Shown one piece after another: positions 3,207-64,000 of a stretch of 64,000 nt of DNA; within the stretch, counting starts at the first letter, position 1, and every line of letters begins with the position of its first letter. Origin of the DNA: Candidatus Micrarchaeota archaeon CG10_big_fil_rev_8_21_14_0_10_45_29 (GTDB lineage Archaea; Micrarchaeota; Micrarchaeia; Anstonellales; Anstonellaceae); the NCBI GenBank assembly GCA_002778455.1, contig PFCD01000002.1:19203-83202 (forward strand). Reading direction: 5' to 3'. Below the pieces are notes generated by a model, which was not told where the DNA came from, ran no database searches, and worked only from the letters and a program-made list of their open reading frames with translations. The position numbers were made by a program, and so were the translations under genes.

Positions 3207-3340
3207 GGGCCCGTAGCTCAGCTTGGATAGAGCGATGTCCTCCTAAGAAACCTTTTCTTTTCAAAAAAGAAAAGCTTTCATGGAAAAGAAAACTTTTAGG
3301 AGCAAGACAAAGGCCGAGAGTTCAAATCTCTCCGGGCCCG
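3207..3340 (+). tRNA. tRNA-Arg(CCU) with a 59-nt intron at the canonical 37/38 position (intron 3246-3304)
   Basis: Acceptor GGGCCCG/CGGGCCC, D-arm GCTC-AGCTTGGATA-GAGC, T-arm GAGAG-TTCAAAT-CTCTC. Anticodon loop is CT-CCT-AA. Intron TTAGGAG (3296-3302) pairs with the anticodon region in BHB style. There is one A-A mismatch at 27-43. Confidence 0.8.
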
Positions 3341-6330: not shown

Positions 6331-8238
6331 ATGTCAAAAATAATAGGTATCGATTTGGGAACAAGCAATTCGGCGGCAGCGGTGTTGGAGGGCGGAAGGC
6401 CTGTGCTTATACCCTCGGCAGAAGGCGCAAGCCTTTATGGAAAATCATTTCCATCCGTTGTTGCAATCACAAAAGACGGGCAAAGGCTGGTAGGTGAGCC
6501 TGCAAGGCGCCAGGCAGTTTCAAATTCGCAAAACACCATGACTGCCTTTAAAAGAAAAATGGGCACCTCCTACAAATACAAGCTGGGGGGAAAAGAATAT
6601 TCCCCGCAGGAATTATCCGCAATGGTGCTCTCAAAAATAAAAAAGGATGCGGAGGCTTTCCTTGGCTCAAAAGTAGAGCGCGCGGTAATTACCGTGCCCG
6701 CATATTTTAACGACAACCAAAGGCAGGCAACAAAGGATGCGGGTGAAATTGCGGGGCTAAAAGTTGAGAGAATAATAAACGAGCCTACCGCGGCATCACT
6801 CTCTTACGGGCTTGACAAGGCGGGACAGGAGCAAAAAATCCTTGTCTTTGATTTGGGGGGCGGAACTCTGGATGTCACAATAATGGATTTTGGCGGGGGC
6901 GTATTCGAGGTAAAATCCACCTCTGGAGACACCCAGCTTGGCGGAACCGACATGGACAACGCGCTTGTGGATTATTTGGTGGGAGTTTTTCTGCGCGAGA
7001 GCGGAATAAACATACAAGAGGACCACATGGCAATGCAAAGAATGCGCGAGGCGGCGGAAAAGGCAAAAATAGAGCTTTCCACAACCCTTGATTCTGAAAT
7101 TAATCTGCCTTACCTTACGGCAACAAAGGAGGGCCCGAAGCATTTTGCCCACAAGCTTACCCGCGCAAAGCTTGAGGAAATAGTGGATCCCATTATACAG
7201 CGCTGCAAAGCGCCCATTACAAACTCGCTAAAGGACGCAAAGCTGACTGCCGACAACATAGACAAAATAATTATGGTAGGCGGCCCGACAAGAATGCCTA
7301 TAGTGCAAAAATTTGTTGAAGGGCTTGTGGGAAAGAAAGTCGAGTATGGAGTAGACCCGATGGAATGCGTTGCATACGGCGCAGCAATTCAGGGGGGCGT
7401 GCTGGCAGGGGAGGTAAAAGACGTGCTTTTGCTTGATGTCACCCCCCTTTCCTTGGGAATCGAGACGCTTGGAGGCGTATTCACAAAACTTATTGAGCGC
7501 AACACAACAATTCCCACGAAAAAATCCCAGATATTTTCAACAGCATCAGACAACCAGCCCTCAGTCGACATTAAGGTGCTGCAGGGCGAGCGCTCTATGG
7601 CAGCAGACAATGTGGAGCTTGGGCGCTTCTCGCTTGTAGGAATAGCGCCCGCGCCGAGGGGAATGCCGCAAATAGAAGTAACCTTTGACATTGACGCAAA
7701 CGGAATCATAAACGTTTCTGCAAAAGACAAAGGAACCAACAAAGAGCAAAAAATCCAGATAAGCGCGCCAAACAAAATGCCAAGCGAGGAAATAGAGCAA
7801 AAAATGAAAGACGCGCAAAAATTTGCAGAAGAGGACAAGAAAAGGGCGGAAGAGGCGCAAATACTCAATGAGGCGGAGGCTACGGTGTATCTGGCAGAAA
7901 AAACCCTAAAAGAGCACGGGGACAAGGTGCCTGAGCTAAAAACAGATATTGAAGAAAAATTAAAAGCCCTAAAAGAAGAGCTTGGCAAAAAGCCGGCAGA
8001 CGCGCAAAAAGTAAAATCGGCGCTTGAGGAGCTCAACTCCCACCTGCAAAAAATAGGCGAGAAATTATACAAGCAGCAAGGGGGCTCTCCCGGCTCGGGC
8101 GGCGAAAACGCGGGCTCCGGGGAACAGGGAAATTCCGGCTTCGGCGCACAAGGTGGAGGAGGCGCGGGAAAAAATGAAGGCAGCGGTGGCTCTGGGGGAA
8201 AAGACGAGCCCATTGACGCGGATTTCAAGAAAAAATAA
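6331..8238 (+). CDS. dnaK: Hsp70 chaperone DnaK
   Basis: [10 protein letters not shown] and DLGGGTLDV motifs. 635 aa with a Gly-rich C-terminal tail. Confidence 0.98.
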
Positions 8239-18569: not shown

Positions 18570-20072
18570 ATGGCTAAACTTATTGAACAGAGCACTTTTT
18601 TTCCAGATAAAAATAAATTAATGCAAAATTTTAACTCATCTTTTGAAAAGCTTCTTCCTTTCCCCCAAAGAACCCTTATGGCGCAGAGCGCCATAGAGCA
18701 AATAAGGCAGTCATTAAGCAAGGAAAATTTCAAAAAATACGAAAATGTTTGCAAAATTGTGGGGCGCCTGGCAGAGCATGCCGAATACTTATCAAATATT
18801 GATTATGATAAAATAAGCTTTGAGAGAAAAAAAGACATCCTCTCAAAAGTGGATGTGTGCATTGACGGAATATGCTTAAAATTAGCAGAAATTGCGCAAA
18901 TAGAGCTTCCCACTTACAAGCATTTGTTCAACGAAGGGGAGAAAAAATCCGATACTCCGGTTCTGCTCTCAGAATATAAAGCCAATGCCGATTTCATTAC
19001 TGAGCCCATGTCCAAAAGAGAGATAATGGACGATATGTCTGATAGCTATTCTCCAAGAAATCTGGCAAGGCGGCTTCCCTCTCTTAAGAAAAAATATCTT
19101 TCTCTTCTCACAATCCACGGGGAAATTGCAAAAATAGAGCAAAAGCTAAAGCCGCTGCGCGCAAATGAAGAAAAAGAATTCTTAGACAAATATGACAGGG
19201 ATTGCGGCCTTCCTGCAAGGGATTTGAGAAAAGAGCTTGTGCGGCTTTTGGAAAAAGTTGAGGAAAGCTGCGGCGAAGCCATCGGCTCCAGATATGCATA
19301 TCCGTCTCAAGCCGCAAATTCAATATATCCCTCGCAGGGTGTTGCTTTGGAAAATTTCGAAAATCTTATGAAAGAGGAAATTCCCACCCTTTCTCCAAAA
19401 ACAGATTTTGGCAAAAATGCTCTAAACAAGCTAAAAGAGAAAATGGGGGAAAATTTTGAAAAATTTGAAGGCATTTGCAATGCCGCCGCGCGCCTGGCAG
19501 AGCATGTGCAATACATCTCACAGCAGGATTTGGCAAATTTCGGGCTTCACCAAAAAGCATTATGGCTTACAAAGGCAACTCTTGCAATAATGGGGCTTTA
19601 TCCGCGCATGTTTGAGCGGGCAGGCCTAAGCGAGCCCTCCATAGCAAATGACCATGTATATTTATTCTTTGGAGAAGAGCCATACTTAAAATTGCTCACA
19701 CCAATGCATTATCGCACCCTTATACATTTAATCCAAGATGAGGGCTATGAATATTCTGAGAAAAGCGTCCCTCAGCTTGAAGAAGAGCTCTGTGAAATTG
19801 AGAGAAAATATCTCCATCTTCTTCCCTTGCACGCTCTTCTCCAAGATATCTCTCTTTCCCTGGAACCCCTAACGCGCAATATTCACACAAACCGCATGCA
19901 ATTTATGGCAAATGCGTCCAGTCATAATGACTTTGCCAATTTATCCAAGTTCTGGGATTTAGTTGAAGAGCTTAACTTCCAAAGCAAAAAGCAGGGATAT
20001 ATCAATCAACTGCCGGACGGCATATTCTACGCGGCTAATTACTTAAAGGTTAAAGACCGCTATTCAATTTAA
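18570..20072 (+). CDS. Hypothetical protein with an internal duplication
   Basis: Two halves share ...F.K.E..C.....RLAEH.(E/Q)Y(L/I)S... and ...(K/R)KYL.LL..H......L.(L/E)PL. No known motif. Confidence 0.6.
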   Translation: MAKLIEQSTFFPDKNKLMQNFNSSFEKLLPFPQRTLMAQSAIEQIRQSLSKENFKKYENVCKIVGRLAEHAEYLSNIDYDKISFERKKDILSKVDVCIDGICLKLAEIAQIELPTYKHLFNEGEKKSDTPVLLSEYKANADFITEPMSKREIMDDMSDSYSPRNLARRLPSLKKKYLSLLTIHGEIAKIEQKLKPLRANEEKEFLDKYDRDCGLPARDLRKELVRLLEKVEESCGEAIGSRYAYPSQAANSIYPSQGVALENFENLMKEEIPTLSPKTDFGKNALNKLKEKMGENFEKFEGICNAAARLAEHVQYISQQDLANFGLHQKALWLTKATLAIMGLYPRMFERAGLSEPSIANDHVYLFFGEEPYLKLLTPMHYRTLIHLIQDEGYEYSEKSVPQLEEELCEIERKYLHLLPLHALLQDISLSLEPLTRNIHTNRMQFMANASSHNDFANLSKFWDLVEELNFQSKKQGYINQLPDGIFYAANYLKVKDRYSI

Positions 20073-38151: not shown

Positions 38152-41127
38152 ATGGTTAGGCGTATAGAGGCAGCTCTCAAGCCCGACTTTGCGGACCCGA
38201 AGGCGGATGCCATCCTGCAAAGAATAAGGGATGATTTTGGCGCAACTTCTTTGCATCTTATCCGCCGCGCAAACGTATGCTCATTTGAAAAAGAATTAAG
38301 CGAAGCCGATGCAACAGTTGTTGCTGGGCAAATCTTATGCGACCCGGTAAACCAGCAATATTGCCTTGACAGGCCTATTGATACTTTTTTCAATTATGCA
38401 ATAGAGATAGGCTTTCGCCCCGGAGTAAAAGACAATGTCGCAGACACGATTCGCATCGCATGCGAAGATGCGCTTAACAAAAAAATAGAGGGGGGAATTT
38501 ACACTTCCACATTATATTTATTTTATGGGGAATTTCCAAAAAGGCGCGCAAAAGAGATATGCGAGAAGCTTCTTTGCAACCCCTTAATAGAGCGCTACAG
38601 CGAATTCACGCCATTAAACGCGCGAAAATATTATCTCAAAGCCAGCCTTCCAAAAGCAGGCGAGCAAGCCATGGGGAAAACATTGGCAATAAAGCTTCCT
38701 GCAGGAAAAAAAGCACTCGAGAGGCTATCAAAAAAGCGCCTGCTTGCGCTCACCGCCGAGGAAATGCTTGAAATAAAAAAGCATTATGCAAAGCCCTCAA
38801 CAAAAAAAACAAGAAAAAAGCTGGGGCTCCCCCCCGCACCAACCGACGTGGAAATTGAATGCATTGCCCAAACCTGGTCAGAGCATTGCAAGCACAAAAT
38901 ATTCAACGCGCAAATAGATTACATTGACAAGACGCAAAAGCCCCATAAGCGCCAGAGAATAAATTCGCTTTTCAAAACATATATTGCAGGAACCACACAA
39001 AGAATAGAGGTGGCGCAGCCTTACCTTCTCTCCGTCTTTGAAGACAATGCAGGCATAATCGCGATTGATGATGAATGGGCGCTTGCCCTAAAGGCAGAGA
39101 CTCACAACACCCCATCCGCCCTTGACCCTTACGGAGGCGCACTCACAGGAATTTTAGGGGTGAATAGGGATGTGCTTGGCAGCGGGCTTGGCGCAAAACC
39201 CATATTCAACACAGATGTTTTCTGCTTTGCCCATCCAAATTATGATAAAAAGCTCCCTCCGCGCATTTTGCATCCAAAAAGAGTTTTTGAGGGCGTGCGC
39301 GCAGGAGTTGAGAGGGGGGGAAATGCATCAGGCATTCCGACCGTTAACGGCTCAATAGTATTTCATGACTCTTATTTGGGAAAGCCTCTTGTATACTGCG
39401 GCACAGGGGGGATAATGCCACGCAGGCTTGCAGACGGGCGCGAAACCCACATAAAAAGAGTGCAGGCAGGCGCGCGCATTTTCATGGTGGGGGGCAAAAT
39501 AGGAAAAGACGGAATCCACGGCGCAACATTCTCCTCAATAGAATTAAACGAAGCCTCTCCGACATCTGCCGTGCAATTGGGAGACCCGTTTACGCAAAAA
39601 ATAATGCTTGACTTTCTGCTTGAATCCCGCGACAAGGGGCTTCATAGCGCCCTCACAGACAACGGCGCGGGCGGGCTTTCCTCATCTGTTGGGGAAATGT
39701 CGCAAATGAGCGGGGGGGCGCAAATTCATCTTGAAAAATGCCCTCTAAAATACCCGGGCTTAAATCCGTGGGAAATTTTTGTCTCAGAATCACAGGAGCG
39801 AATGACTGTTGCCGTGCCTCCTCAAAATTGCGAGGAATTTATCTCTTTGGCAAAAAAATTCGGCGCAGAAGCAACAGACATCGGAGAATTTACCTCAACA
39901 GGAAATTTAGTTGCAAATTACCATGGCAAAACCGTCCTTTGCCTTCCTTTGGAATTTTTGCACGGCGGCCTGCCAAAAATGAAATTAACCGCCATATTGC
40001 AAAACAAAAAAATTCATAGCGAAACTTTTCCTATTCCAAATAACCTTACCTCCCAGCTTCTCTCTCTTTTGCAAATGCCTGATATTTGCTCAAAAGAATC
40101 CATTGTGCGCCAATACGACCACGAGGTGCAGGGAATGGGCGTAATAAAGCCGTTGTGCGGAGTAAACGGCGCCGGCCCGTCGGATGCCGCAGTGTTGCAG
40201 CCCTTTTATGGCAGGCGCACAGGCATTGTAATATCGCACGGAATCTGCCCCCGCTTCTCGCAATATGATGCTTATGACATGGCACAGCTGGCAGTTGATG
40301 AGGCGGTGCGAAATTATATCGCAACAGGGGGGGACCCGCGCCACTGGGCGGCGCTTGATAATTTCTGCTGGCCCGACCCTGTGCAAAGCAAAAAAAACAA
40401 AGACGGCGCGCACAAGCTTGCCCAGCTTGTGAGGGCAAACCAGGGAATGGCGGACGCATGCCTTCATTACAACCTTCCCCTAGTATCAGGCAAGGATTCG
40501 ATGAAAAATGATTACTCATTCGGCAAAATAAAAATTTCCGTGCTTCCCACCCTTCTTATCAGCATGTGCGGCGTAATGCTGGATGCAAGGCGCGCGGTTT
40601 CAACAGATTTCAAAAAATCCGGCGACATAATTTATGCGCTTGGAAAAACCAGAAATGAAATGCGCGGAAGCCAATACTGCCAAATGCATGAAAAAGAGGG
40701 AAAAGAGCATCCAAAGGTGAATTTGCACGAGAATTATATTCTTTACAAAAATTTGCACCATGCAATGCAAAAAGGGCTCATAAGCGCGGCGCACGATGTC
40801 TCTGACGGCGGAATAGCAGTAACCCTTGCCGAAATGGCAATTGGCGGGCAGCTGGGAATGCATGTAAAATGCGCCTCTATCCCGCATGAGGGAGGAATGC
40901 GCGATGATGAAATTCTTTTTAGCGAAACTGCCGGGCGCTTTATAGTAACTATAAAAGCGCAAGATGCAGGTGAATTTGAGAAAATAATGCAGGATTGCGA
41001 ATTTGCAAAAATAGGAAACGTGATATCCGGCACCCAGTTTGTGGTAGGGGGGGCAAATCCCTCCTCGCACATAACAACAAGCGTAAAAGAGCTGGAGAGC
41101 GCTTTCAAAAAAACAATAACATGGTAG
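38152..41127 (+). CDS. purL: FGAM synthase II with two fused N-terminal PurS-like repeats (PurS-PurS-PurL)
   Basis: Residues ~1-85 and ~86-170 each resemble PurS (...LKPDFADPKADAI... and ...FRPGVKDNVADTI...CEKLLCNPLIERY). The PurL core follows (WSEHCKHKIF, ETHNTPSALDPYGGA). 991 aa. Confidence 0.9.
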   Translation: MVRRIEAALKPDFADPKADAILQRIRDDFGATSLHLIRRANVCSFEKELSEADATVVAGQILCDPVNQQYCLDRPIDTFFNYAIEIGFRPGVKDNVADTIRIACEDALNKKIEGGIYTSTLYLFYGEFPKRRAKEICEKLLCNPLIERYSEFTPLNARKYYLKASLPKAGEQAMGKTLAIKLPAGKKALERLSKKRLLALTAEEMLEIKKHYAKPSTKKTRKKLGLPPAPTDVEIECIAQTWSEHCKHKIFNAQIDYIDKTQKPHKRQRINSLFKTYIAGTTQRIEVAQPYLLSVFEDNAGIIAIDDEWALALKAETHNTPSALDPYGGALTGILGVNRDVLGSGLGAKPIFNTDVFCFAHPNYDKKLPPRILHPKRVFEGVRAGVERGGNASGIPTVNGSIVFHDSYLGKPLVYCGTGGIMPRRLADGRETHIKRVQAGARIFMVGGKIGKDGIHGATFSSIELNEASPTSAVQLGDPFTQKIMLDFLLESRDKGLHSALTDNGAGGLSSSVGEMSQMSGGAQIHLEKCPLKYPGLNPWEIFVSESQERMTVAVPPQNCEEFISLAKKFGAEATDIGEFTSTGNLVANYHGKTVLCLPLEFLHGGLPKMKLTAILQNKKIHSETFPIPNNLTSQLLSLLQMPDICSKESIVRQYDHEVQGMGVIKPLCGVNGAGPSDAAVLQPFYGRRTGIVISHGICPRFSQYDAYDMAQLAVDEAVRNYIATGGDPRHWAALDNFCWPDPVQSKKNKDGAHKLAQLVRANQGMADACLHYNLPLVSGKDSMKNDYSFGKIKISVLPTLLISMCGVMLDARRAVSTDFKKSGDIIYALGKTRNEMRGSQYCQMHEKEGKEHPKVNLHENYILYKNLHHAMQKGLISAAHDVSDGGIAVTLAEMAIGGQLGMHVKCASIPHEGGMRDDEILFSETAGRFIVTIKAQDAGEFEKIMQDCEFAKIGNVISGTQFVVGGANPSSHITTSVKELESAFKKTITW

Positions 41128-57150: not shown

Positions 57151-57501
57151 TTAAAGCTCAAAATGCATCTGAATGGTCTCCCTTCCGGCTAAATCCGCAA
57201 TATAGGTATAAAAGCCCTTTTTCTTGTACCAAGAGATTACTTTCTCCTTATTGTATGCATGCGCAAGCAAATATGTGCAGCCTATTTCTGCCCTTATGCT
57301 TATCGCCTTCTTGACGGCAAAATCCAGCAATATGCTTGCAGCCCCTCTCCCCTCTTCGTTTTTGTCTGTAGCAAGTTTTCCTATAAGAAGAGCAGGGAAT
57401 GATTTCGGAAAGTCCTTGGGGTAATCCTTGAGCTTTTTATTGCAGAAAACAAATTCTTCGCTTTTCTCCGGCAACTTCATGGCGCCCATGCTTAGAGCCA
57501 T
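57151..57501 (-). CDS. GNAT N-acetyltransferase, toxin-like; ATG-initiated part only
   Basis: Acetyl-CoA motif EEGRGAASILLDFAV. The same frame stays open 83 codons further upstream (to 57750) and encodes the expected GNAT N-terminus (ISILREEHSPLLEKFDCENAELNEFLQKDALGY...). That stretch has no ATG/GTG/TTG start. Confidence 0.65.
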   Translation of the reverse strand: MALSMGAMKLPEKSEEFVFCNKKLKDYPKDFPKSFPALLIGKLATDKNEEGRGAASILLDFAVKKAISIRAEIGCTYLLAHAYNKEKVISWYKKKGFYTYIADLAGRETIQMHFEL

Positions 57502-57960: not shown

Positions 57961-58197
57961 TCACTCTAAGTATTTGTTCCAGGCTTTGCTCTCTTTTGGA
58001 TCATTCCAGTAATCAAGATTGGAGTTTTCCATGGCAAAACGGCTAATCTCCTCGTTTTCTGCTATTTTCTTTCTCTCCTTCTCGTCAAAGTCCCTCAATG
58101 CCATGCGCAGAATTTCCACTTTTGAACCCCCGTATCCTTTTTTGACATATTTTTGTATAAGCTCCTCGTAATAGTTGCCCAAATTAAAGTTAACCAT
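57961..58197 (-). CDS. Ribbon-helix-helix (CopG-like) protein, orphan antitoxin/regulator
   Basis: MVNFNLGNYYEELIQKYVKKGYGGSKVEILRMALRDF fits beta-strand, helix, helix. No partner gene lies in the 115 nt downstream. Confidence 0.55.
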   Translation of the reverse strand: MVNFNLGNYYEELIQKYVKKGYGGSKVEILRMALRDFDEKERKKIAENEEISRFAMENSNLDYWNDPKESKAWNKYLE

Positions 58198-58431
58198 GTT
58201 AAAGCACCAATTGTATATGTGCAATAAATGCTTAATAAATGTATCTTTAATATACATAGAAGCACCCAAAATGGCGGAAAAAGGGAGATACAAGCCTTAA
58301 GCAACAATCCATAAGGAAATATCGAAAATCTCTAATCCAAATCCCCTCACATCAAGTTTGCCCCATGTATGGGCGGGAAGGCTTGCGCCCTCCCCTCTCC
58401 CCTTAACCGCCATCCTGCCTGCAGGCAAGCG

Positions 58432-58842
58432 TTAATCCTTCAGATTCACCTTCCAATTCCATGAGGAGAGAAAAGAATCCATGCGCACCTTTTTCTTCTC
58501 AAGGGCGGTTATTTTGGCAAGAAGCTCCTTTTGGGGCACTTGGAAAATCCTGCGCTTTTCATCCCTAAAGCCCCAGCTTTTTTCCTTGTAATCCGCGCGC
58601 AATTTCTCAAGGGAGGAGAGTTCGGAGCGCATATCTCCCACATAGTGTATTGCCTCTGCCATGCCCATCTTCCCCTCCGGAGTGTCTATAAAATTTGAGT
58701 GGTTTGCCTCCTCCACCTTTATTTTGAGCTTTCGTATCTCTTTTGAGAGGGCGCCTATTTGGGAGGTTAGGCCTTCAAACTTCTCGTCGGCGGCAAAATC
58801 CCGCCCCTCCTCGCATGAAAAAGAGCTCTCGCGGGCCTCCAT
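58432..58842 (-). CDS. Coiled-coil hypothetical protein (136 aa)
   Basis: Heptad-rich sequence. GC content is like the core genome. Confidence 0.45.
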   Translation of the reverse strand: MEARESSFSCEEGRDFAADEKFEGLTSQIGALSKEIRKLKIKVEEANHSNFIDTPEGKMGMAEAIHYVGDMRSELSSLEKLRADYKEKSWGFRDEKRRIFQVPQKELLAKITALEKKKVRMDSFLSSWNWKVNLKD

Positions 58843-58974: not shown

Positions 58975-59712
58975 TTATCCCAGAGTCCAGCCGCCATCCA
59001 CAACTAAAATTTGCCCTGTAATGTATTCCGCCTTGTCCGAGCACAAAAACGTTGCCACTGTGGCTATATCTTTGGGCGTTCCGCGCCTTTTCCAGGGTAT
59101 TCTTGCGGCAATCTGCTCCCTTGCTTTTGCATCCATGGAACCCTTTGTTCCAGGCGTATCTATGCCTCCGGGCGCAATTGCGTTTATGTTAATTTTTTTA
59201 GATGCAAGCTCTAAAGCCGCAGAGCGCACAAGCGCATTCATTCCCCCCTTTGAGGCGCAGTAATGGGAGAGGCCTGAAAAGCCAATCATTGAGGCAATAG
59301 AGCTAATCATCAAGATTTTTGAGCCGGGCTTCATTATTTTAGATGCTTCCTTTATGGCAAAGAAACTGCCCTTCAAATTAGTATCAAGGACCAAATCCCA
59401 GTCTTTTTCCTCTATTTGGCTTATGGATTTGAAGGGGTAAATGCCTGCATTATTTACAAAAATATCTATTTTTTTGAATTTGTTTTTTGTTGTTTTTATG
59501 AGATTTCTTATTTGATTTGTATCTGAAACATCACAGGCAATTCCAAGCGTTTTTACCTTGTATTTTGAGGCGATTTTTTTGGCTGTTTTTTCGCAGTCTT
59601 TCTGGTTTAGGGAGGCAATAATTACTGTTGCTTTTTCTTTTGCAAACTCTTCTGCTATCCCAAGCCCTATTCCCTTTGTAGAGCCGGTTATTATTGCTAC
59701 TTTATTTTTCAT
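58975..59712 (-). CDS. Short-chain dehydrogenase/reductase (FabG-like)
   Basis: TGSTKGIG cofactor motif, NNAG and catalytic YCASK. 245 aa. Confidence 0.92.
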   Translation of the reverse strand: MKNKVAIITGSTKGIGLGIAEEFAKEKATVIIASLNQKDCEKTAKKIASKYKVKTLGIACDVSDTNQIRNLIKTTKNKFKKIDIFVNNAGIYPFKSISQIEEKDWDLVLDTNLKGSFFAIKEASKIMKPGSKILMISSIASMIGFSGLSHYCASKGGMNALVRSAALELASKKININAIAPGGIDTPGTKGSMDAKAREQIAARIPWKRRGTPKDIATVATFLCSDKAEYITGQILVVDGGWTLG

Positions 59713-59742
59713 TGAAAAAGAGAGGGGGAGGGAGTTTAAAAG
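59623..59742. repeat. Direct repeat A (120 bp): SDR promoter-proximal region plus codons 1-30
   Basis: 114/120 identical to 61878-61997 by hand alignment. Confidence 0.95.
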
Positions 59743-59826
59743 AAAGAGGGGTTAGCTTGTTGGTTTCAGTTTTACTTTGCCAAAGCCAGATACCATGGAG
59801 AGAGAAGAGAGATAAATGACAAAAAA

Positions 59827-60972
59827 CTATTTCTTTGCCTCAAGCCCCTTCACGAAACCAATCAGTTTTTCATGAAGAGTTATCAACAGACTTTTATCAT
59901 AAAATGGTTTATTGGATTTCTCAAGGAGAAGATTAATTTCCTTGTAAGTTTCCCAGAACTGCATCTCCTTGAGTGTAGCTTTATTATCCTCCGCACTTCG
60001 GATAAAAAATTTGTAAGTTATATCCACATTGCTATTGCTTAGGCGAGCAGACACCAAAGTGCGTATGCGTATGGCTTCTGAGAGAAGTTCAGACAAATCA
60101 GCCTTTGGGCTTTTATTTGAATGATAATTTGTTATAGCTTTTTCTAGAGTAGCCAAATCCTGTTGGGATGGGTTTATCGGCTTCTCCGCAATCTTTGCAA
60201 AGAACATTCTCAGAGGTTCAGTCGGCTCTTTTTCAGGGATGTTTGTTAATTGTCGGTAGTTAATATAAGGGTCAAATTCTTTTTCATTTTCTAGTGCCAT
60301 CGTGTGAATGGGAGAACCTAAACAATCAGCATATCCAATCTCATAATGGCAGTAAGTACTTTTTAGTTGGTAGTTTTTTGAGGCGACGACAATGATACTC
60401 TTGGAATTTCGTATGGAATCCTTTATTCCGGGGTGCCATTCCTTCCCGTGTTTAAGATCCTTGTGGGCTATGAATGCAATGTAATCAGCACGCTCTAGAA
60501 TTTGTTCAACTGCTTTGGCAATATCATAATCGTAGCTTGAATGACAGATGAAAAAATCCACCCCCTTAGTGCTATTTTTAGGAATGTCAATTCTAGAGTC
60601 TATTAACCGTGTAAGATTTTCGGGAGTTAGAACGTCACCATCTTTCAAAACAGTCCTTCTAGTTCTAATCCGCGATATTAAAGCTGGAGAATGAAGGCGA
60701 ATTGTGTCCAATAACCTAGATACAGTTCCATTCTTTACAAAAATTCCATAAGAGATTGAATCTTTTATTGAAGTCAATCCAGCGATGCTGTCCTTTAATT
60801 CAGATACGGCCGCATGATCCCACGAAGGATCCACAATCTCTAATAGCCCCTTTATCTGTGAACATATATCTACACATTTTCCCTTAAACTTATCAAAGGA
60901 ATATGTCGTATAAGCAGGGATATAACTAAGATCAGCTTCGAGGTTATTCAGTTCAGAATCGCTCAACGCCAT
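59827..60972 (-). CDS. TIR-domain protein with unassigned N- and C-terminal domains (381 aa)
   Basis: Central region VDFFICHSSYDYDIAKAVEQIL...GKEW...IRNSKSIIVVASKNYQLKSTYCHYEIG matches the TIR pattern (D-F-F-I-S/C-H, ...ivV.S.n...S.w...E). Confidence 0.8.
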   Translation of the reverse strand: MALSDSELNNLEADLSYIPAYTTYSFDKFKGKCVDICSQIKGLLEIVDPSWDHAAVSELKDSIAGLTSIKDSISYGIFVKNGTVSRLLDTIRLHSPALISRIRTRRTVLKDGDVLTPENLTRLIDSRIDIPKNSTKGVDFFICHSSYDYDIAKAVEQILERADYIAFIAHKDLKHGKEWHPGIKDSIRNSKSIIVVASKNYQLKSTYCHYEIGYADCLGSPIHTMALENEKEFDPYINYRQLTNIPEKEPTEPLRMFFAKIAEKPINPSQQDLATLEKAITNYHSNKSPKADLSELLSEAIRIRTLVSARLSNSNVDITYKFFIRSAEDNKATLKEMQFWETYKEINLLLEKSNKPFYDKSLLITLHEKLIGFVKGLEAKK

Positions 60973-61172
60973 GTTAGTTCCCCTGATGCTTTCTCTAGTC
61001 GAGAGTACATAAAAAACTACGCTAGGCTATCTCACTGCCTTAAACTCCAATTTTTTCCCTATTTTGAGTGTGCAGACAAGCTCCACGGATTCAAAATTTT
61101 TCCCAAAAACTTCAATTTCAAGCAAGTTTAGATAATGTTTTACCAGACATTGTCGTTGGTCTCTAAAAGTAC

Positions 61173-61664
61173 TTATCTAATGGCATTTCTAAGATCAACC
61201 AGTTCACTCCTTATTTCCTTATTTATACGAATATCCTGCTTATGTTTACGTTCCAGGTCTGACAAATATTTCTCGTTGGACTTTATGATATTACGTATAA
61301 ATCTATTTATGTGATACGAACTTGGAACTCTGGAGTTCCTTTTGTTCCCCGTAGGTTTATGCAAAGATAATACAAGCGCCTCGAGATCCTTGACATATTT
61401 TACTTTTTTTATTATGATCAATTTGAATCTATCCCATTTTTTTGCATGTCTATCTTTTATGTGGTCTTTAACCCGTTTATGTAGATTATTTGCCAAACCA
61501 ACATAATAAAGCTCATCGTCTTTGTATAATCCATATATCCCTGAATATTTTCTAAGAAGAGTCTTGATCTCATCTTTCAACCAGAAATTTTCTAGAATGT
61601 CACCTGGAAGTGGCTTTGAAATCTCTTTTACCAGAGAACCGCGGCTACTTTTCTTTTTAGGCAT
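61173..61664 (-). CDS. GIY-YIG nuclease-domain protein (163 aa)
   Basis: SGIYGLYKDDELYYVGLANNLHKRVKDH plus a downstream Glu (DLEALVL) fit the GIY-YIG core. Helical charged C-terminus. Confidence 0.75.
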   Translation of the reverse strand: MPKKKSSRGSLVKEISKPLPGDILENFWLKDEIKTLLRKYSGIYGLYKDDELYYVGLANNLHKRVKDHIKDRHAKKWDRFKLIIIKKVKYVKDLEALVLSLHKPTGNKRNSRVPSSYHINRFIRNIIKSNEKYLSDLERKHKQDIRINKEIRSELVDLRNAIR

Positions 61665-61826
61665 ACTCAGCTACAATAGCCACAGCGTAAGGAATATTTT
61701 TATGACTTACCATATAGCCACTGGATTCATGACAGCTATTTTTATAGGAACCCGCATAAAAGAGTAGCATGGAGCAGCGACTTATTAATGGATACCTAGC
61801 AGGCATTGGCAGTATCACTGCCACCA

Positions 61827-61967
61827 TTATGCTTGGCATATACACACTAAATAATCTTTGGGCGTACCAACCCAGACTACTGCTGCTTTTTCTTTTGCAA
61901 ACTCTTCTGCTATCCCAAGCCCAATTCCCTTTGTGGAGCCGGTTATAATTGTTACTTTATTTTTCAT
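61827..61967 (-). pseudogene. Truncated SDR 5' fragment (46 codons)
   Basis: MKNKVTIITGSTKGIGLGIAEEFAKEKAAVV then divergence and a stop. The first 30 codons lie inside direct repeat B. Confidence 0.8.
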
Positions 61968-61997
61968 TGAAAAAGACAGGGGGAGGGAGTTTAAAAG
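61878..61997. repeat. Direct repeat B (120 bp)
   Basis: 114/120 identical to 59623-59742. Confidence 0.95.
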
Positions 61998-62106: not shown

Positions 62107-64000
62107 ATGGATTTTATCACCCTTGGAAAAGAGAAAAAGAAAATACCGGTGGCTATCAGCTACGGGATAATATCACTTTTTTCAAAAGGTCTATACAAAA
62201 GTGGTAACAAGGCAATCGAGGAACTCGTTACAAATTCGTTTGATGCGATGGCCAGTAATGTATATGTTGAGTTTCCGGATGACCATACTGACAAAGACGC
62301 AAAAATAGTTGTGATAGATGATGGAGAAGGCATGGATGATTCTGGATTTGAAAACCTTTGGAAAGTTGGAAAGAGTTATAAGCGAGAACATGAGATAGCT
62401 GGAAGAAGAAAATCCATAGGGAAATTTGGAATAGGAAAGCTGGCAACATACATACTAGCATCTAAATTGACTCACATCTCCAAGAGAGATGGAAAATTTT
62501 TAGCAACCACAATGGATTATGAAGATATCGATAAAGAGGGAGATGGAGAGATTAGGACCAAAGAGAGAAAAATAAGCATGCGTGAGCTAAGCCGAGAAGA
62601 GGTTGAAAAGGTAATACAGCAGCTTCCTGAATTCCCTCCAGGAGATCGTACAACATATAATGATAAACTTTTGGGGGTAAGGGCGTCTAAAACCTGGACT
62701 ATTGCTATTATGTCCAAACTAAAAGATCTGGCTCGAGGAGTTCAACGAGGGAGATTAAGATGGATCCTAGAAACTGCCATGCCACTCAGAGACGATTTCA
62801 ATATTTTTCTGAATAGGGAAAAGCTGAAGCCATCTAAGATCAAGTTTGAGAAATACGGTAAGTGGGTTCTCGGAAAAGATATCAAGGCAAAGGAACTTGG
62901 ACCGACCGCTTCAGATAAATGGGAAGCTCTTAAAGATGGAAAAAAGAACTATTTTTTGACACATCCTGAACTAGGAAAAATCTGGGGCTATGCTGAGCTA
63001 TACAAAGATATCTTGGAAGGTGGAAAATCTGACACGACTGGAAGAAGCAATGGATTTTTTGTCTATGTGAGAGAAAGACTTGTGAATATAGAAGATCCGT
63101 ATTTTGGTCTGGACAGTAACAAGCTCTGGCACGGGACATTCTCAAGGTTCAGATTAGTGATTCATATTGATTCACTCGATGAGGAACTGCGCTCGAGCAG
63201 GGAGGTCGTGCAAGAAGGAGTACTAATGAATACAACAAATAATCTACTTTATTCAGTATTTAACTTCTTGGACAAAGAATACAAAAAAAAGAAAAAACAA
63301 GATGATCCTGATCGCAAGACGACTGCACGAGTTGAAGGAGTTGCTAGAAGCCTCACTCGGAGACCAATTCTATATGCCTTGAGGAGATCCATCGAGGAGG
63401 ATATTTCCTTAAAATATATGAAATTTGGAGAGATATCGAAAAGCAAAGATAAAAAACAAGCACTCGAGTTTCTAAGTTCTAAGACAAAGGAGGGAGAGTT
63501 TTTCAAAGAGTTTTCAGTAGAACCTACTGGGGACCAGTACGTGTTGACCTTTGATATCGAAACTGGAAGGGTGGTAATCAACAGCTTGCACCCATATATA
63601 TGTCTCTTGATGGGGGATTATAATCTCAATCCGGCTCAGTTGCAATTATTTGCAGTGTCTGAAATATTGCTTGAGGCTTATTTGTATGAGGCAGGCATAG
63701 CATATTCACAGATTATGGATATTCTTGAGACGAGAGATGAGATATTCCGGGAACTAGCCAGAACGTCAAGCAGAAAATCGGCTTATGCCATTGCACAGAA
63801 TCTCTGTGATTCCGCGAACGATGAGAAGAAACTGGAACAGGCACTGGTCGAATGTTTCGAATCCTTAGGTTTCTATGACGTTGCACCCATATCTGGAAAG
63901 GGGGAACCAGATGGAATTGCCAGCGCAAGATTACCTTACAGTGATGGAAAGCATCAGTCATACAAGGCTACGCTGGAAGCAAAGAGTAAACAAAAACCCG
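62107..64000 (+). CDS. GHKL (Hsp90/MORC-like) ATPase fused to a PD-(D/E)xK (Mrr-like) nuclease region; 3' end outside window
   Basis: Not in the ORF track because there is no stop in the window. Hand translation from the ATG at 62107 is open to nt 64000 (631 codons). It has N-box EELVTNSFDA, G1 DDGEGMD and G2 GKFGIGKL. Near the end, ECFESLGFYDV..GKGEPDGIA...(x19)...LEAKSK fits D...ExK. Confidence 0.8.
   Translation, partial: MDFITLGKEKKKIPVAISYGIISLFSKGLYKSGNKAIEELVTNSFDAMASNVYVEFPDDHTDKDAKIVVIDDGEGMDDSGFENLWKVGKSYKREHEIAGRRKSIGKFGIGKLATYILASKLTHISKRDGKFLATTMDYEDIDKEGDGEIRTKERKISMRELSREEVEKVIQQLPEFPPGDRTTYNDKLLGVRASKTWTIAIMSKLKDLARGVQRGRLRWILETAMPLRDDFNIFLNREKLKPSKIKFEKYGKWVLGKDIKAKELGPTASDKWEALKDGKKNYFLTHPELGKIWGYAELYKDILEGGKSDTTGRSNGFFVYVRERLVNIEDPYFGLDSNKLWHGTFSRFRLVIHIDSLDEELRSSREVVQEGVLMNTTNNLLYSVFNFLDKEYKKKKKQDDPDRKTTARVEGVARSLTRRPILYALRRSIEEDISLKYMKFGEISKSKDKKQALEFLSSKTKEGEFFKEFSVEPTGDQYVLTFDIETGRVVINSLHPYICLLMGDYNLNPAQLQLFAVSEILLEAYLYEAGIAYSQIMDILETRDEIFRELARTSSRKSAYAIAQNLCDSANDEKKLEQALVECFESLGFYDVAPISGKGEPDGIASARLPYSDGKHQSYKATLEAKSKQKP

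Follow-up and report, generated by a model that had tools for sequence, protein, structure and literature searches.

A TIR-domain protein with two orphan helical flanks, carried on a repeat-bounded insert of a Micrarchaeota genome, is a candidate stand-alone NADase

Introduction

The logic by which regulated clustering leads to the cleavage of NAD+ was shown experimentally for SARM1, a multi-domain eukaryotic protein whose helical domains control a TIR domain that acts as an NAD+-cleaving enzyme (NADase). In bacteria, the stand-alone TIR NADase SpbK, encoded on ICEBs1 of Bacillus subtilis, is switched on through the clustering of its TIR domains by a phage portal (PMC12847820), and among archaea TcpA depletes NAD+ in a Glu-dependent manner (PMC10937652). 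A systematic survey of TIR proteins, which reported 341 TIR clusters and 81,720 proteins, left the stand-alone TIRs to one side, regarding them as effectors that probably deplete NAD+ (bioRxiv 10.64898/2025.12.03.692087). Here we describe a gene for a 381-aa TIR-domain protein on a 64,000-nt stretch of DNA (hereafter the window: positions 19,203 to 83,202 of the forward strand of contig PFCD01000002.1, GenBank assembly GCA_002778455.1) from Candidatus Micrarchaeota archaeon CG10_big_fil_rev_8_21_14_0_10_45_29.

An earlier note, made by reading the window without database searches, had taken the product of this gene for an archaeal TIR protein with two unassigned flanking domains and no known partner. 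Following up on that reading, we find a complete TIR domain with a Glu in the catalytic position, set between two helical regions that match no described family, and encoded on a small insert at the 5' end of an SDR gene that was left intact. In our view the protein is a candidate stand-alone NADase acting in defence, and the alternatives to this view are weighed below.

Results

The TIR domain and Glu211

The gene occupies positions 59827 to 60972 on the minus strand, with an ATG start and a TAG stop, exactly where the earlier note had placed it, and its 381-aa product contains all three of the motifs quoted there: DFFICH at residues 139-144, GKEW at 176-179 and SIIVVAS...YCHYEIGYA at 192-215. 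Six public contigs, drawn from at least four samples, encode an identical protein. Four of these were retrieved and match the window at 100% identity, and one of the four, L002, reaches 7 kb past the window end.

Residues 136-262 (60187-60567, minus strand) form the TIR domain, whose parts can be read as strand betaA (DFFICH), the BB-loop (AHKDLKHGKEWH), strand betaC (SIIVVAS) and helix alphaC (YCHYEIGYA). Pfam TIR_2 (PF13676) matches with an E-value of 8.3e-13 and 49.3 bits against a gathering score of 28, and Pfam TIR (PF01582) with 30.5 bits against a threshold of 21.3; the two closest relatives of the protein, P0001 and P0002 (see below), likewise score above the Pfam TIR threshold. Among defence profiles, the best matches are to the ThsB/TIR models of PADLOC (E 5.6e-9 to 1e-5), with the Pfam ThsB_TIR match remaining below its cut-off (16.7 vs. 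21.2 bits). In an AlphaFold2 model of the 381-aa protein, built on a 22-sequence alignment, the domain has predicted local distance difference test scores (pLDDT) of 80-95 and strands at residues 138-143, 166-168, 190-197, 222-226 and 241-244, alternating with helices, and every Foldseek match of probability 1.00 is a TIR structure (SARM1, SPARTA TIR-APAZ, RUN1, the SpbK filament, TLRs and MyD88). The TIR domain is genuine and complete, its assignment lies far beyond chance and its fold can be superimposed on solved TIRs; profile searches, structure prediction and structural-neighbour search all bear out its original identification. Its extent needed revision, however: the domain was rightly recognised, but the bounds first given, residues 147-235, are too narrow. 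Because the TIR domain is longer than this, its flanks measure 135 aa (a helical portion of 97 aa and a 38-aa linker) on the N-terminal side and 119 aa on the C-terminal side, rather than about 145 aa each.

Glu211 (codon at 60340-60342, minus strand), within the alphaC motif YCHYEIG, falls in the column of the catalytic Glu of NADase TIRs. It aligns with the WxxxE Glu of solved TIRs, i.e., with that of TLR2 (WCKYEL), TLR6 (WCHYEL), Roq1 (WCLEEL), 8btn (WMPWELG), Cat1 (WCWDEL) and BtTir (WTEYEL), and it occupies one of only seven columns that are invariant across the 22-sequence alignment, as would be anticipated from the earlier proposal that a catalytic-position Glu is present. In each of the three family members, Tyr207 stands in place of the Trp that precedes this Glu by four residues in the WxxxE motif. 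Glu178, in GKEW, is not the catalytic Glu, because it lies within the BB-loop and is an Asp in both relatives; the BB-loop itself contains HKDLKHG, which has the canonical (R/K)D-x-x-x-G form. From the position and conservation of Glu211 we infer that the domain would cleave NAD+ through this residue.

Flanking domains

On its N-terminal side, the protein begins with an orphan domain (residues 1-97; 60682-60972, minus strand) that is predicted to be helical and is acidic, with an isoelectric point (pI) of 4.9. It is followed by a basic linker (residues 98-135; 60568-60681, minus strand; pI 10.7) that is modelled with pLDDT below 50 and is probably flexible. Residues 1-135 have no match in Pfam, PHROGs, PADLOC or NCBIfam, and a search of 5.8 billion protein clusters with the N-terminal domain alone found no homologue at E<=10. 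A MipZ-like match to the N-terminus in the Protein Data Bank (PDB) had an E-value of 0.34 and was treated as chance.

The C-terminal side (residues 263-381; 59830-60186, minus strand; pI 9.1) is a second orphan domain, basic in this case, which AlphaFold2 predicts, when it is modelled alone, to be a six-helix bundle (pLDDT 85.5). It shares 52% identity with its counterpart in P0001, and an exhaustive HMMER scan of 1.84 billion representative proteins with this region matched P0001 and P0022 only. The second of these was rejected as a relative: P0022 is a metagenomic protein of 732 aa with near-perfect tandem repeats of about 90 aa, in which seven stretches of about 11 bits each were summed to an E-value of 2e-16, and it serves as an example of how repeats inflate the significance of matches to hidden Markov models. 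A fold search with the C-terminal model against the PDB and the viral structure collection BFVD returned nothing below E 0.47 and only generic helical bundles, the weak PDB matches being designed bundles, FliS and CheA-P1/HPt (best E 0.47), and the bundle has no recognisable enzymatic or ligand-binding signature. A PADLOC PDC-S13 match to residues 251-349 (E 0.0058, 14 bits) was also treated as chance. The statement that neither flank contains a nameable motif has thus held up, both sides being without a profile match in the four collections and the C-terminal side also without a fold neighbour in the PDB or BFVD.

A three-member lineage with variable ends

A profile of the TIR domain and C-terminal bundle retrieves three kinds of protein. 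The first, P0001 (342 aa, E 6e-155), has the same TIR domain and C-terminal bundle, 56% identical over the 251-aa module, behind an unrelated N-terminus that is possibly a winged helix, the sole hint of a winged helix-turn-helix being a match to HTH_Crp_2 at E 0.23. The second, P0002 (393 aa, E 7e-22), has its TIR domain at the N-terminus, followed by a different helical region of about 240 aa, and the similarity stops near residue 297. Below P0002, there are only TIR-only proteins of about 170 aa that carry a WCPWEIGYAD motif.

The TIR lineage numbers three members among the 5.8 billion clusters, sharing the motif DFFICH...AHK-x-x-x-x-G-x-x-WH...YCHYEIGYA and varying in their terminal domains and in their neighbours. 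No relatives of the lineage were found in 185,579 species-representative genomes, and none in IMG/VR viral contigs or phage records; a plasmid collection yielded one weak TIR-only match and nothing else. Against solved TIRs, a profile of the three members reaches E-values of only 2e-3 to 0.1 (TLRs, plant TIRs, AbTir and 8btn), and such weak matches indicate a divergent TIR lineage of its own. The retention of the TIR domain, with or without the C-terminal bundle, while the termini are exchanged is what would be expected of a catalytic engine with exchangeable recognition modules. The earlier note had suggested that the flanks could be a new sensor and/or effector module; an N-terminal orphan that is swapped or missing in relatives fits a variable sensor rather than an effector.

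An insert that restored its target

The TIR gene lies between two copies of a 120-nt direct repeat (59623-59742 and 61878-61997), which repeat search and local alignment show to differ by six mismatches (95% identity). The repeat contains a TTTTAAA TATA-like box and the first 30 or so codons (about 90 nt) of an SDR gene. Its right copy (59623-59742) heads an intact, FabG-like SDR gene (58975-59712, minus strand; Pfam adh_short_C2 at 240 bits, with matches to NCBIfam SDR/FabG models) that lies directly downstream of the TIR gene, and its left copy (61878-61997) belongs to a truncated 5' remnant of the SDR gene, an open reading frame (ORF) of 46 aa at approximately 61827-61967 (minus strand) that appears among the gene calls of contig L002 as a weak adh_short fragment. 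A 15-nt match hinting that this remnant retains some 3' sequence ("GTPKD") scored within the range of shuffled sequences and was discarded.

The 2,135-bp segment between the repeat copies holds only three genes or ORFs: the TIR gene; a gene for a 163-aa GIY-YIG nuclease upstream of it (61173-61664, minus strand; Pfam GIY-YIG at 30.6 vs. 22.6 bits); and a putative small ORF (61657-61845, minus strand; 62 aa here and 56 aa on the public contigs) whose stop overlaps the GIY-YIG start. In the translation of the nuclease gene, the GIY, YVG, Arg, His, Glu and Asn motif residues are all readable, and the protein has a weak match to PADLOC PDC-S14. Because the segment holds nothing else, the GIY-YIG and TIR genes appear to have arrived as an insert of about 2.1 kb that regenerated the 5' end of its target, and since the repeats carry the TATA-like box and the first 30 or so codons of the SDR gene, that gene, the apparent insertion target, remained intact after the insertion. 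The insertion also accounts for the adjacency of the SDR gene, which we had considered as an NAD-linked partner: neither homologue has an SDR alongside, and this candidate was set aside.

Several further results bear on the possible mobility of the insert. Its structure points to mobility, and it contains no integrase or transposase. Neither an empty nor a second insertion site was recovered: exact look-ups of the SDR and GIY-YIG proteins gave only contigs identical to the window, and a metagenome scan with the SDR returned only SDRs of 27-40% identity. No GIY-YIG relatives were found in viral contigs or phage records. A Logan contig from SRR6240789 (L005; 2,276 bp, corresponding to window positions 59638-61913) begins and ends inside the two repeat copies, and its ends are most likely a break of the assembly graph at the repeats rather than those of a circular or excised form.

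Within the insert, 200 nt separate the GIY-YIG gene from the TIR gene. Reading the sequence around the latter, we find a GGGG Shine-Dalgarno-like motif about 10 nt 5' of the start, a T-rich TATA-like box about 40 nt 5' of the start, and a run of six T residues directly 3' of the stop. The gene appears to have its own promoter-like box and, in the T6 run, a terminator-like signal, and together with the GGGG motif these monocistronic signals suggest that it is expressed independently.

Genomic context and the search for a partner

The G+C content is 0.454 in the first 52 kb of the window, 0.394 in the last 12 kb and 0.375 in the insert. On the far side of the insert, an 826-aa HATPase_c_3 (Pfam) and type II restriction endonuclease-like gene (62107-64000, plus strand, running off the window) is the first gene of an island rich in restriction-modification genes, with PADLOC REase_II and MTase_II matches, which covers window positions 62107-64000 and positions 1-8866 of L002. 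Beyond the GIY-YIG gene, this island encodes two type II restriction-modification pairs (the restriction endonuclease-like protein with a type II methyltransferase, and a MjaV-type restriction endonuclease with its methyltransferase), an HNH/PtuB-like protein and a PDC-S02 (YhcG/NucS-like) nuclease. Judged by gene content and base composition, the TIR gene is at the edge of a low-G+C, restriction-modification-rich defence island.

The low-G+C region near the SDR gene also contains a small GNAT acetyltransferase (57151-57501), a ParD-like ribbon-helix-helix protein (57961-58293) and a DUF6847 protein (58432-58842), all on the minus strand and all with matches below the Pfam thresholds; the first two may be remnants of a toxin-antitoxin system.

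Using Pfam and PADLOC, we searched for partners in the last 12 kb of the window (52-64 kb) and the 7 kb beyond its end, and neither the protein nor this context of about 20 kb contains SIR2, SLOG, Macro, pAgo/APAZ, STING, SAVED, CD-NTase, reverse transcriptase or STAND/NLR NTPase domains, a set that includes each of the partner domains (SIR2/SLOG, pAgo/APAZ, STING, CD-NTase, reverse transcriptase and NLR ATPase) that the earlier note had reported missing. Its broader claim that there is no known partner stands insofar as no recognised partner domain occurs; it is weakened by the co-insertion of a GIY-YIG nuclease gene, though this gene is not conserved beside the two homologues. Upstream of P0001 is a 198-aa protein with predicted membrane helices (L001 9231-9827, plus strand), with a HAD hydrolase and HsdM nearby, and upstream of P0002 is a 103-aa protein (L006 3174-3485, plus strand), with an AAA_25 ATPase nearby; these two upstream proteins fall into no assigned family, and the GIY-YIG gene was found at neither locus. 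The upstream proteins of the three family members (GIY-YIG, 198 aa and 103 aa) are mutually unrelated, and no partner is conserved across the three loci available.

Comparison with described TIR systems

Of the systems considered, SpbK (PDB 9phb) offers the nearest functional parallel. Like the protein described here, it is a single polypeptide that joins a non-catalytic region to a TIR domain and has no dedicated effector gene, and it resides on mobile DNA, as the present gene appears to do. The likeness is one of function, the defining feature of an SpbK-like class being a single gene without a conserved partner, as the architecture and the variable neighbourhoods indicate here, and such a class is not a homology family: 9phb ranks 15th among the Foldseek matches (probability 1.00) and is reached by a broad TIR profile at 25 bits, but there is no specific sequence homology (E 0.16 to the PADLOC spbK model), the similarity being that of TIRs in general. 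The two proteins also differ in layout, in that the TIR matches of SpbK lie nearer the C-terminus (residues 106-218 of 290) whereas the TIR domain here occupies the middle of the chain, ahead of a conserved helical bundle of 119 aa, and in host, SpbK being bacterial and the present protein archaeal. SARM1 (7anw) is the top Foldseek match (E 3.7e-4) and likewise combines several domains, its non-catalytic helical ones regulating an NADase TIR whose catalytic Glu lies in alphaC. However, it is eukaryotic, its domain order differs, no homology to its ARM or SAM domains is present here, and the alignment outside the TIR domain is meaningless (root-mean-square deviation 23 A).

ThsB of the Thoeris systems (types I-XI) shares several features with the protein: a small TIR of the prokaryotic TIR_2 type, an EIGYA-like catalytic motif and a location in defence islands. 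Within the area searched for partners, no ThsA or recognised effector module (SIR2-SLOG, Macro-TM, caspase-like, DUF2270, SLATT and others) is present; the ThsB-like relatives of about 170 aa have a BB-loop of the form DW-x-D...MP-x-x-PN, in contrast to the canonical RD-x-x-x-G form here, and ThsB lacks large orphan domains such as those that flank this TIR on both sides. The bacterial Tcp/Tir proteins AbTir, BtpA/TcpB and BtTir also place a helical N-terminal region, a coiled coil in their case, before the TIR domain, but they lack the C-terminal bundle, several are secreted virulence factors rather than genes of a defence island, and the similarity is confined to the TIR domain (8g83, 4lzp, 7uxr and 7uwg are matched at E 1.7e-7 to 3.9e-6 by the broad profile and at 0.02-0.09 by the family profile). 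TcpA from Theionarchaea and TcpO from Methanobrevibacter olleyae are archaeal TIR proteins as well, but a comparison of architecture, genomic context and host sets them apart, since they differ in the first two and do not come from DPANN archaea.

For the remaining systems the diagnostic components were sought directly. Foldseek aligns SPARTA and short pAgo proteins over the TIR domain only (about 160 columns), with no pAgo or APAZ match in the protein or its neighbours; for CBASS and Pycsar, the CAP12-PCTIR_TIR model scores 17.6 vs. 24.7 bits and there is no SAVED, STING, CD-NTase or cyclase match; and for the TIR-NLR, Avs and retron systems, neither Pfam nor PADLOC gave a STAND NTPase or reverse transcriptase match, and NCBIfam Retron_TIR scored 21.7 vs. 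600 bits. Because the defining partners or fused domains that we tested are absent, the protein is not demonstrably part of a Thoeris, SPARTA, CBASS/Pycsar, Avs or retron-TIR system. By profile it is nearest to the ThsB-type prokaryotic TIRs, and by analogy it would work most like regulated NADases of the SpbK or SARM1 type.

The host

The host belongs to the Micrarchaeota, within the DPANN archaea. Among the proteins encoded in the window are MCM, an archaeal-type SecD, PurL, PurF and DnaK. This MCM shares 76% identity with the MCM of a Candidatus Micrarchaeia metagenome-assembled genome and 64-67% with the MCMs of metagenome-assembled genomes from Anstonellaceae and other Micrarchaeota. An Rfam tRNA match at 3207-3340 (plus strand) spans 134 nt against a model of 71 positions, at a place where, as in the rest of the window, ARAGORN calls no tRNA; the excess length implies an intron-bearing tRNA with a long intron. 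Together, MCM and its identity to the Micrarchaeia genome, SecD and this reading of the tRNA uphold the archaeal label that the gene had been given.

Two other genes of the window merit mention. DnaK (6331-8238, plus strand) is of the bacterial type, scoring 867 bits to the DnaK equivalog in this Micrarchaeota genome, and is adjoined by ORFs of a chaperone region. PurL (38152-41127, plus strand) has 991 aa, including about 215 extra N-terminal residues in which residues 83-149 weakly match a model of the small FGAM-synthase subunit (PRK06423), and is possibly a PurS-PurL fusion.

Discussion

A TIR gene that sits at the edge of a defence island, has a Glu in the catalytic position and lacks a recognised partner can be explained in several ways. 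We favour the explanation that it encodes a stand-alone, SpbK-like sensor-TIR NADase that acts by abortive infection, to which we assign a probability of roughly one half. Starting from the observed fold, motif, architecture and context, this explanation supplies an enzyme activity, a trigger and a role for each flank. In an uninfected cell, the helical domains would hold the TIR domains apart or in an autoinhibited state, until the variable N-terminal domain recognises a cue derived from a virus or plasmid. Recognition would then induce head-to-tail clustering of the TIR domains, a self-association that the C-terminal bundle would assist or gate, and this clustering would complete composite active sites around Glu211. 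NAD+ would be cleaved to nicotinamide and ADP-ribose (ADPR) or a cyclic ADPR (cADPR) isomer, and the loss of NAD+ would collapse metabolism and abort the infection. On the same explanation, the GIY-YIG protein is most likely a separate nuclease, serving defence or mobility, that travels along in the cassette and is not an obligatory partner.

Several considerations weigh against this explanation. Animal TLR TIRs are non-enzymatic scaffolds, and those aligned here keep the same Glu; since scaffolds retain it, the Glu alone is no proof of catalysis, and the substitution of Tyr207 for the Trp four residues before it also counts against an active enzyme. The best solved relative of the lineage is matched at an E-value of only 2e-3, too distant to indicate the type of reaction product. 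Confidence in the N-terminal domain is low, AlphaFold2 giving helices only, with pLDDT of 55-74 and a predicted template modelling score (pTM) of 0.50, and the parts proposed for the two flanks, sensing for the N-terminus and oligomerisation for the C-terminus, are drawn from the conservation pattern and the fold class. Finally, three loci provide weak neighbourhood statistics, and the different small gene that lies upstream of each family member on the same strand can be read as one of a set of interchangeable effectors.

This last observation is the starting point for an explanation in which the protein is one half of a Thoeris-like pair, i.e., a ThsB-type sensor and synthase of a cADPR-like or ADPR-derived signal, with the small upstream gene encoding the effector. 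Its attraction is that ThsB models are the best PADLOC matches (E 5.6e-9), and that, in sequence, the wider TIR neighbourhood of the family consists of the TIR-only proteins of about 170 aa, which match 8btn, the best match of the broad TIR profile and a structure that we take to be a Thoeris ThsB, at E 4.5e-29. Moreover, the small gene lies 76-200 nt upstream, and in the same orientation, in all three members, and Yirmiya et al. describe how a single TIR cluster can be paired with a number of effectors unrelated to one another, DNases and membrane proteins among them (bioRxiv 10.64898/2025.12.03.692087). However, membership among the ThsB proteins is equivocal, given the subthreshold Pfam ThsB_TIR score, and the family profile matches 8btn at E 0.066 only. 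The 163-aa GIY-YIG protein is too small to accommodate a ligand-sensing domain and has no SLOG, Macro, SAVED or CARF match; the three upstream proteins resemble neither one another nor any known Thoeris effector; and the TIR gene, with its own promoter-like box, stands 200 nt away from the GIY-YIG gene. We therefore consider a Thoeris-like pair to be unlikely, if still deserving of attention. Extended to the whole lineage, the idea would make these TIR proteins the signal-generating half of an unrecognised Thoeris-like module, borne on gene-restoring cassettes and served by interchangeable tiny upstream effectors, and in this extended form we find it quite improbable. If it were true, the effectors would be a 163-aa GIY-YIG DNase here and a 198-aa membrane protein or a 103-aa protein elsewhere, and an ultra-small DPANN symbiont would possess TIR second-messenger immunity with a minimal nuclease effector.

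The GIY-YIG fold is well known from homing endonucleases, and the pairing of the GIY-YIG and TIR genes might instead constitute primarily a selfish mobile cassette, either homing-like or a miniature target-restoring element, in which the TIR protein would serve as cargo or as a toxin of the addiction type rather than as a dedicated antiviral sensor. The bracketing of the 2,135-bp segment by 120-nt, 95%-identical repeats that keep the SDR gene intact, its G+C content of 0.375 as compared to 0.454 in the core, and the intact motif residues of the nuclease all accord with this possibility. But the cassette contains no integrase or transposase; neither an empty nor a second insertion site turned up in the contigs or the metagenome scan; the nuclease has no relatives in viral contigs or phage records; and the TIR homologues travel without the GIY-YIG gene. 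More fundamentally, mobility is compatible with a function in defence and does not replace it. For these reasons a primarily selfish cassette seems improbable.

To our knowledge, the prokaryotic TIR proteins that have been characterised all act in conflict systems. A role outside defence, as a non-catalytic scaffold or adaptor or as an enzyme of NAD-capped RNA removal ("deNAMing") or NAD homeostasis in physiology or in the interaction of a DPANN archaeon with its host, is very improbable: the BB-loop and alphaC motifs are as much like those of TLR scaffolds as of enzymes, archaeal TcpA removes the NAD cap from RNA (PMC10937652), and the pI values of the linker (10.7) and the C-terminal domain (9.1) would suit nucleic-acid binding, but the gene lies within an inserted cassette in a low-G+C, restriction-modification-rich island, and the family is extremely rare and patchy, with three members and no match in 185,579 species-representative genomes, quite unlike the distribution of a housekeeping gene.

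Four features of this locus appear to be new: an architecture that places the TIR domain between an orphan helical domain and an orphan six-helix bundle, a lineage of extreme rarity, a DPANN host and the gene-restoring insert that carries the GIY-YIG and TIR genes. Defence islands often harbour TIR proteins whose accessory domains are uncharacterised, and NADases of the TIR type were already known from archaea, so that it is the architecture that is new and not the kind of system, and current understanding is not overturned. The insert nevertheless illustrates how a metabolic gene can escape inactivation when a defence gene enters at its 5' end. The two compact domains, which have no detectable relatives apart from the bundle of P0001, are candidate new modules for trigger recognition or assembly, and the variable N-terminus attached to a conserved core of TIR domain and C-terminal bundle would amount to a natural experiment in the swapping of sensors. 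If the proposed mechanism is right, immunity by NAD+-cleaving TIR proteins reaches the Micrarchaeota, and because members of this DPANN group have minimal genomes and rely on a host cell, abortive infection among them would have unusual consequences at the level of the population.

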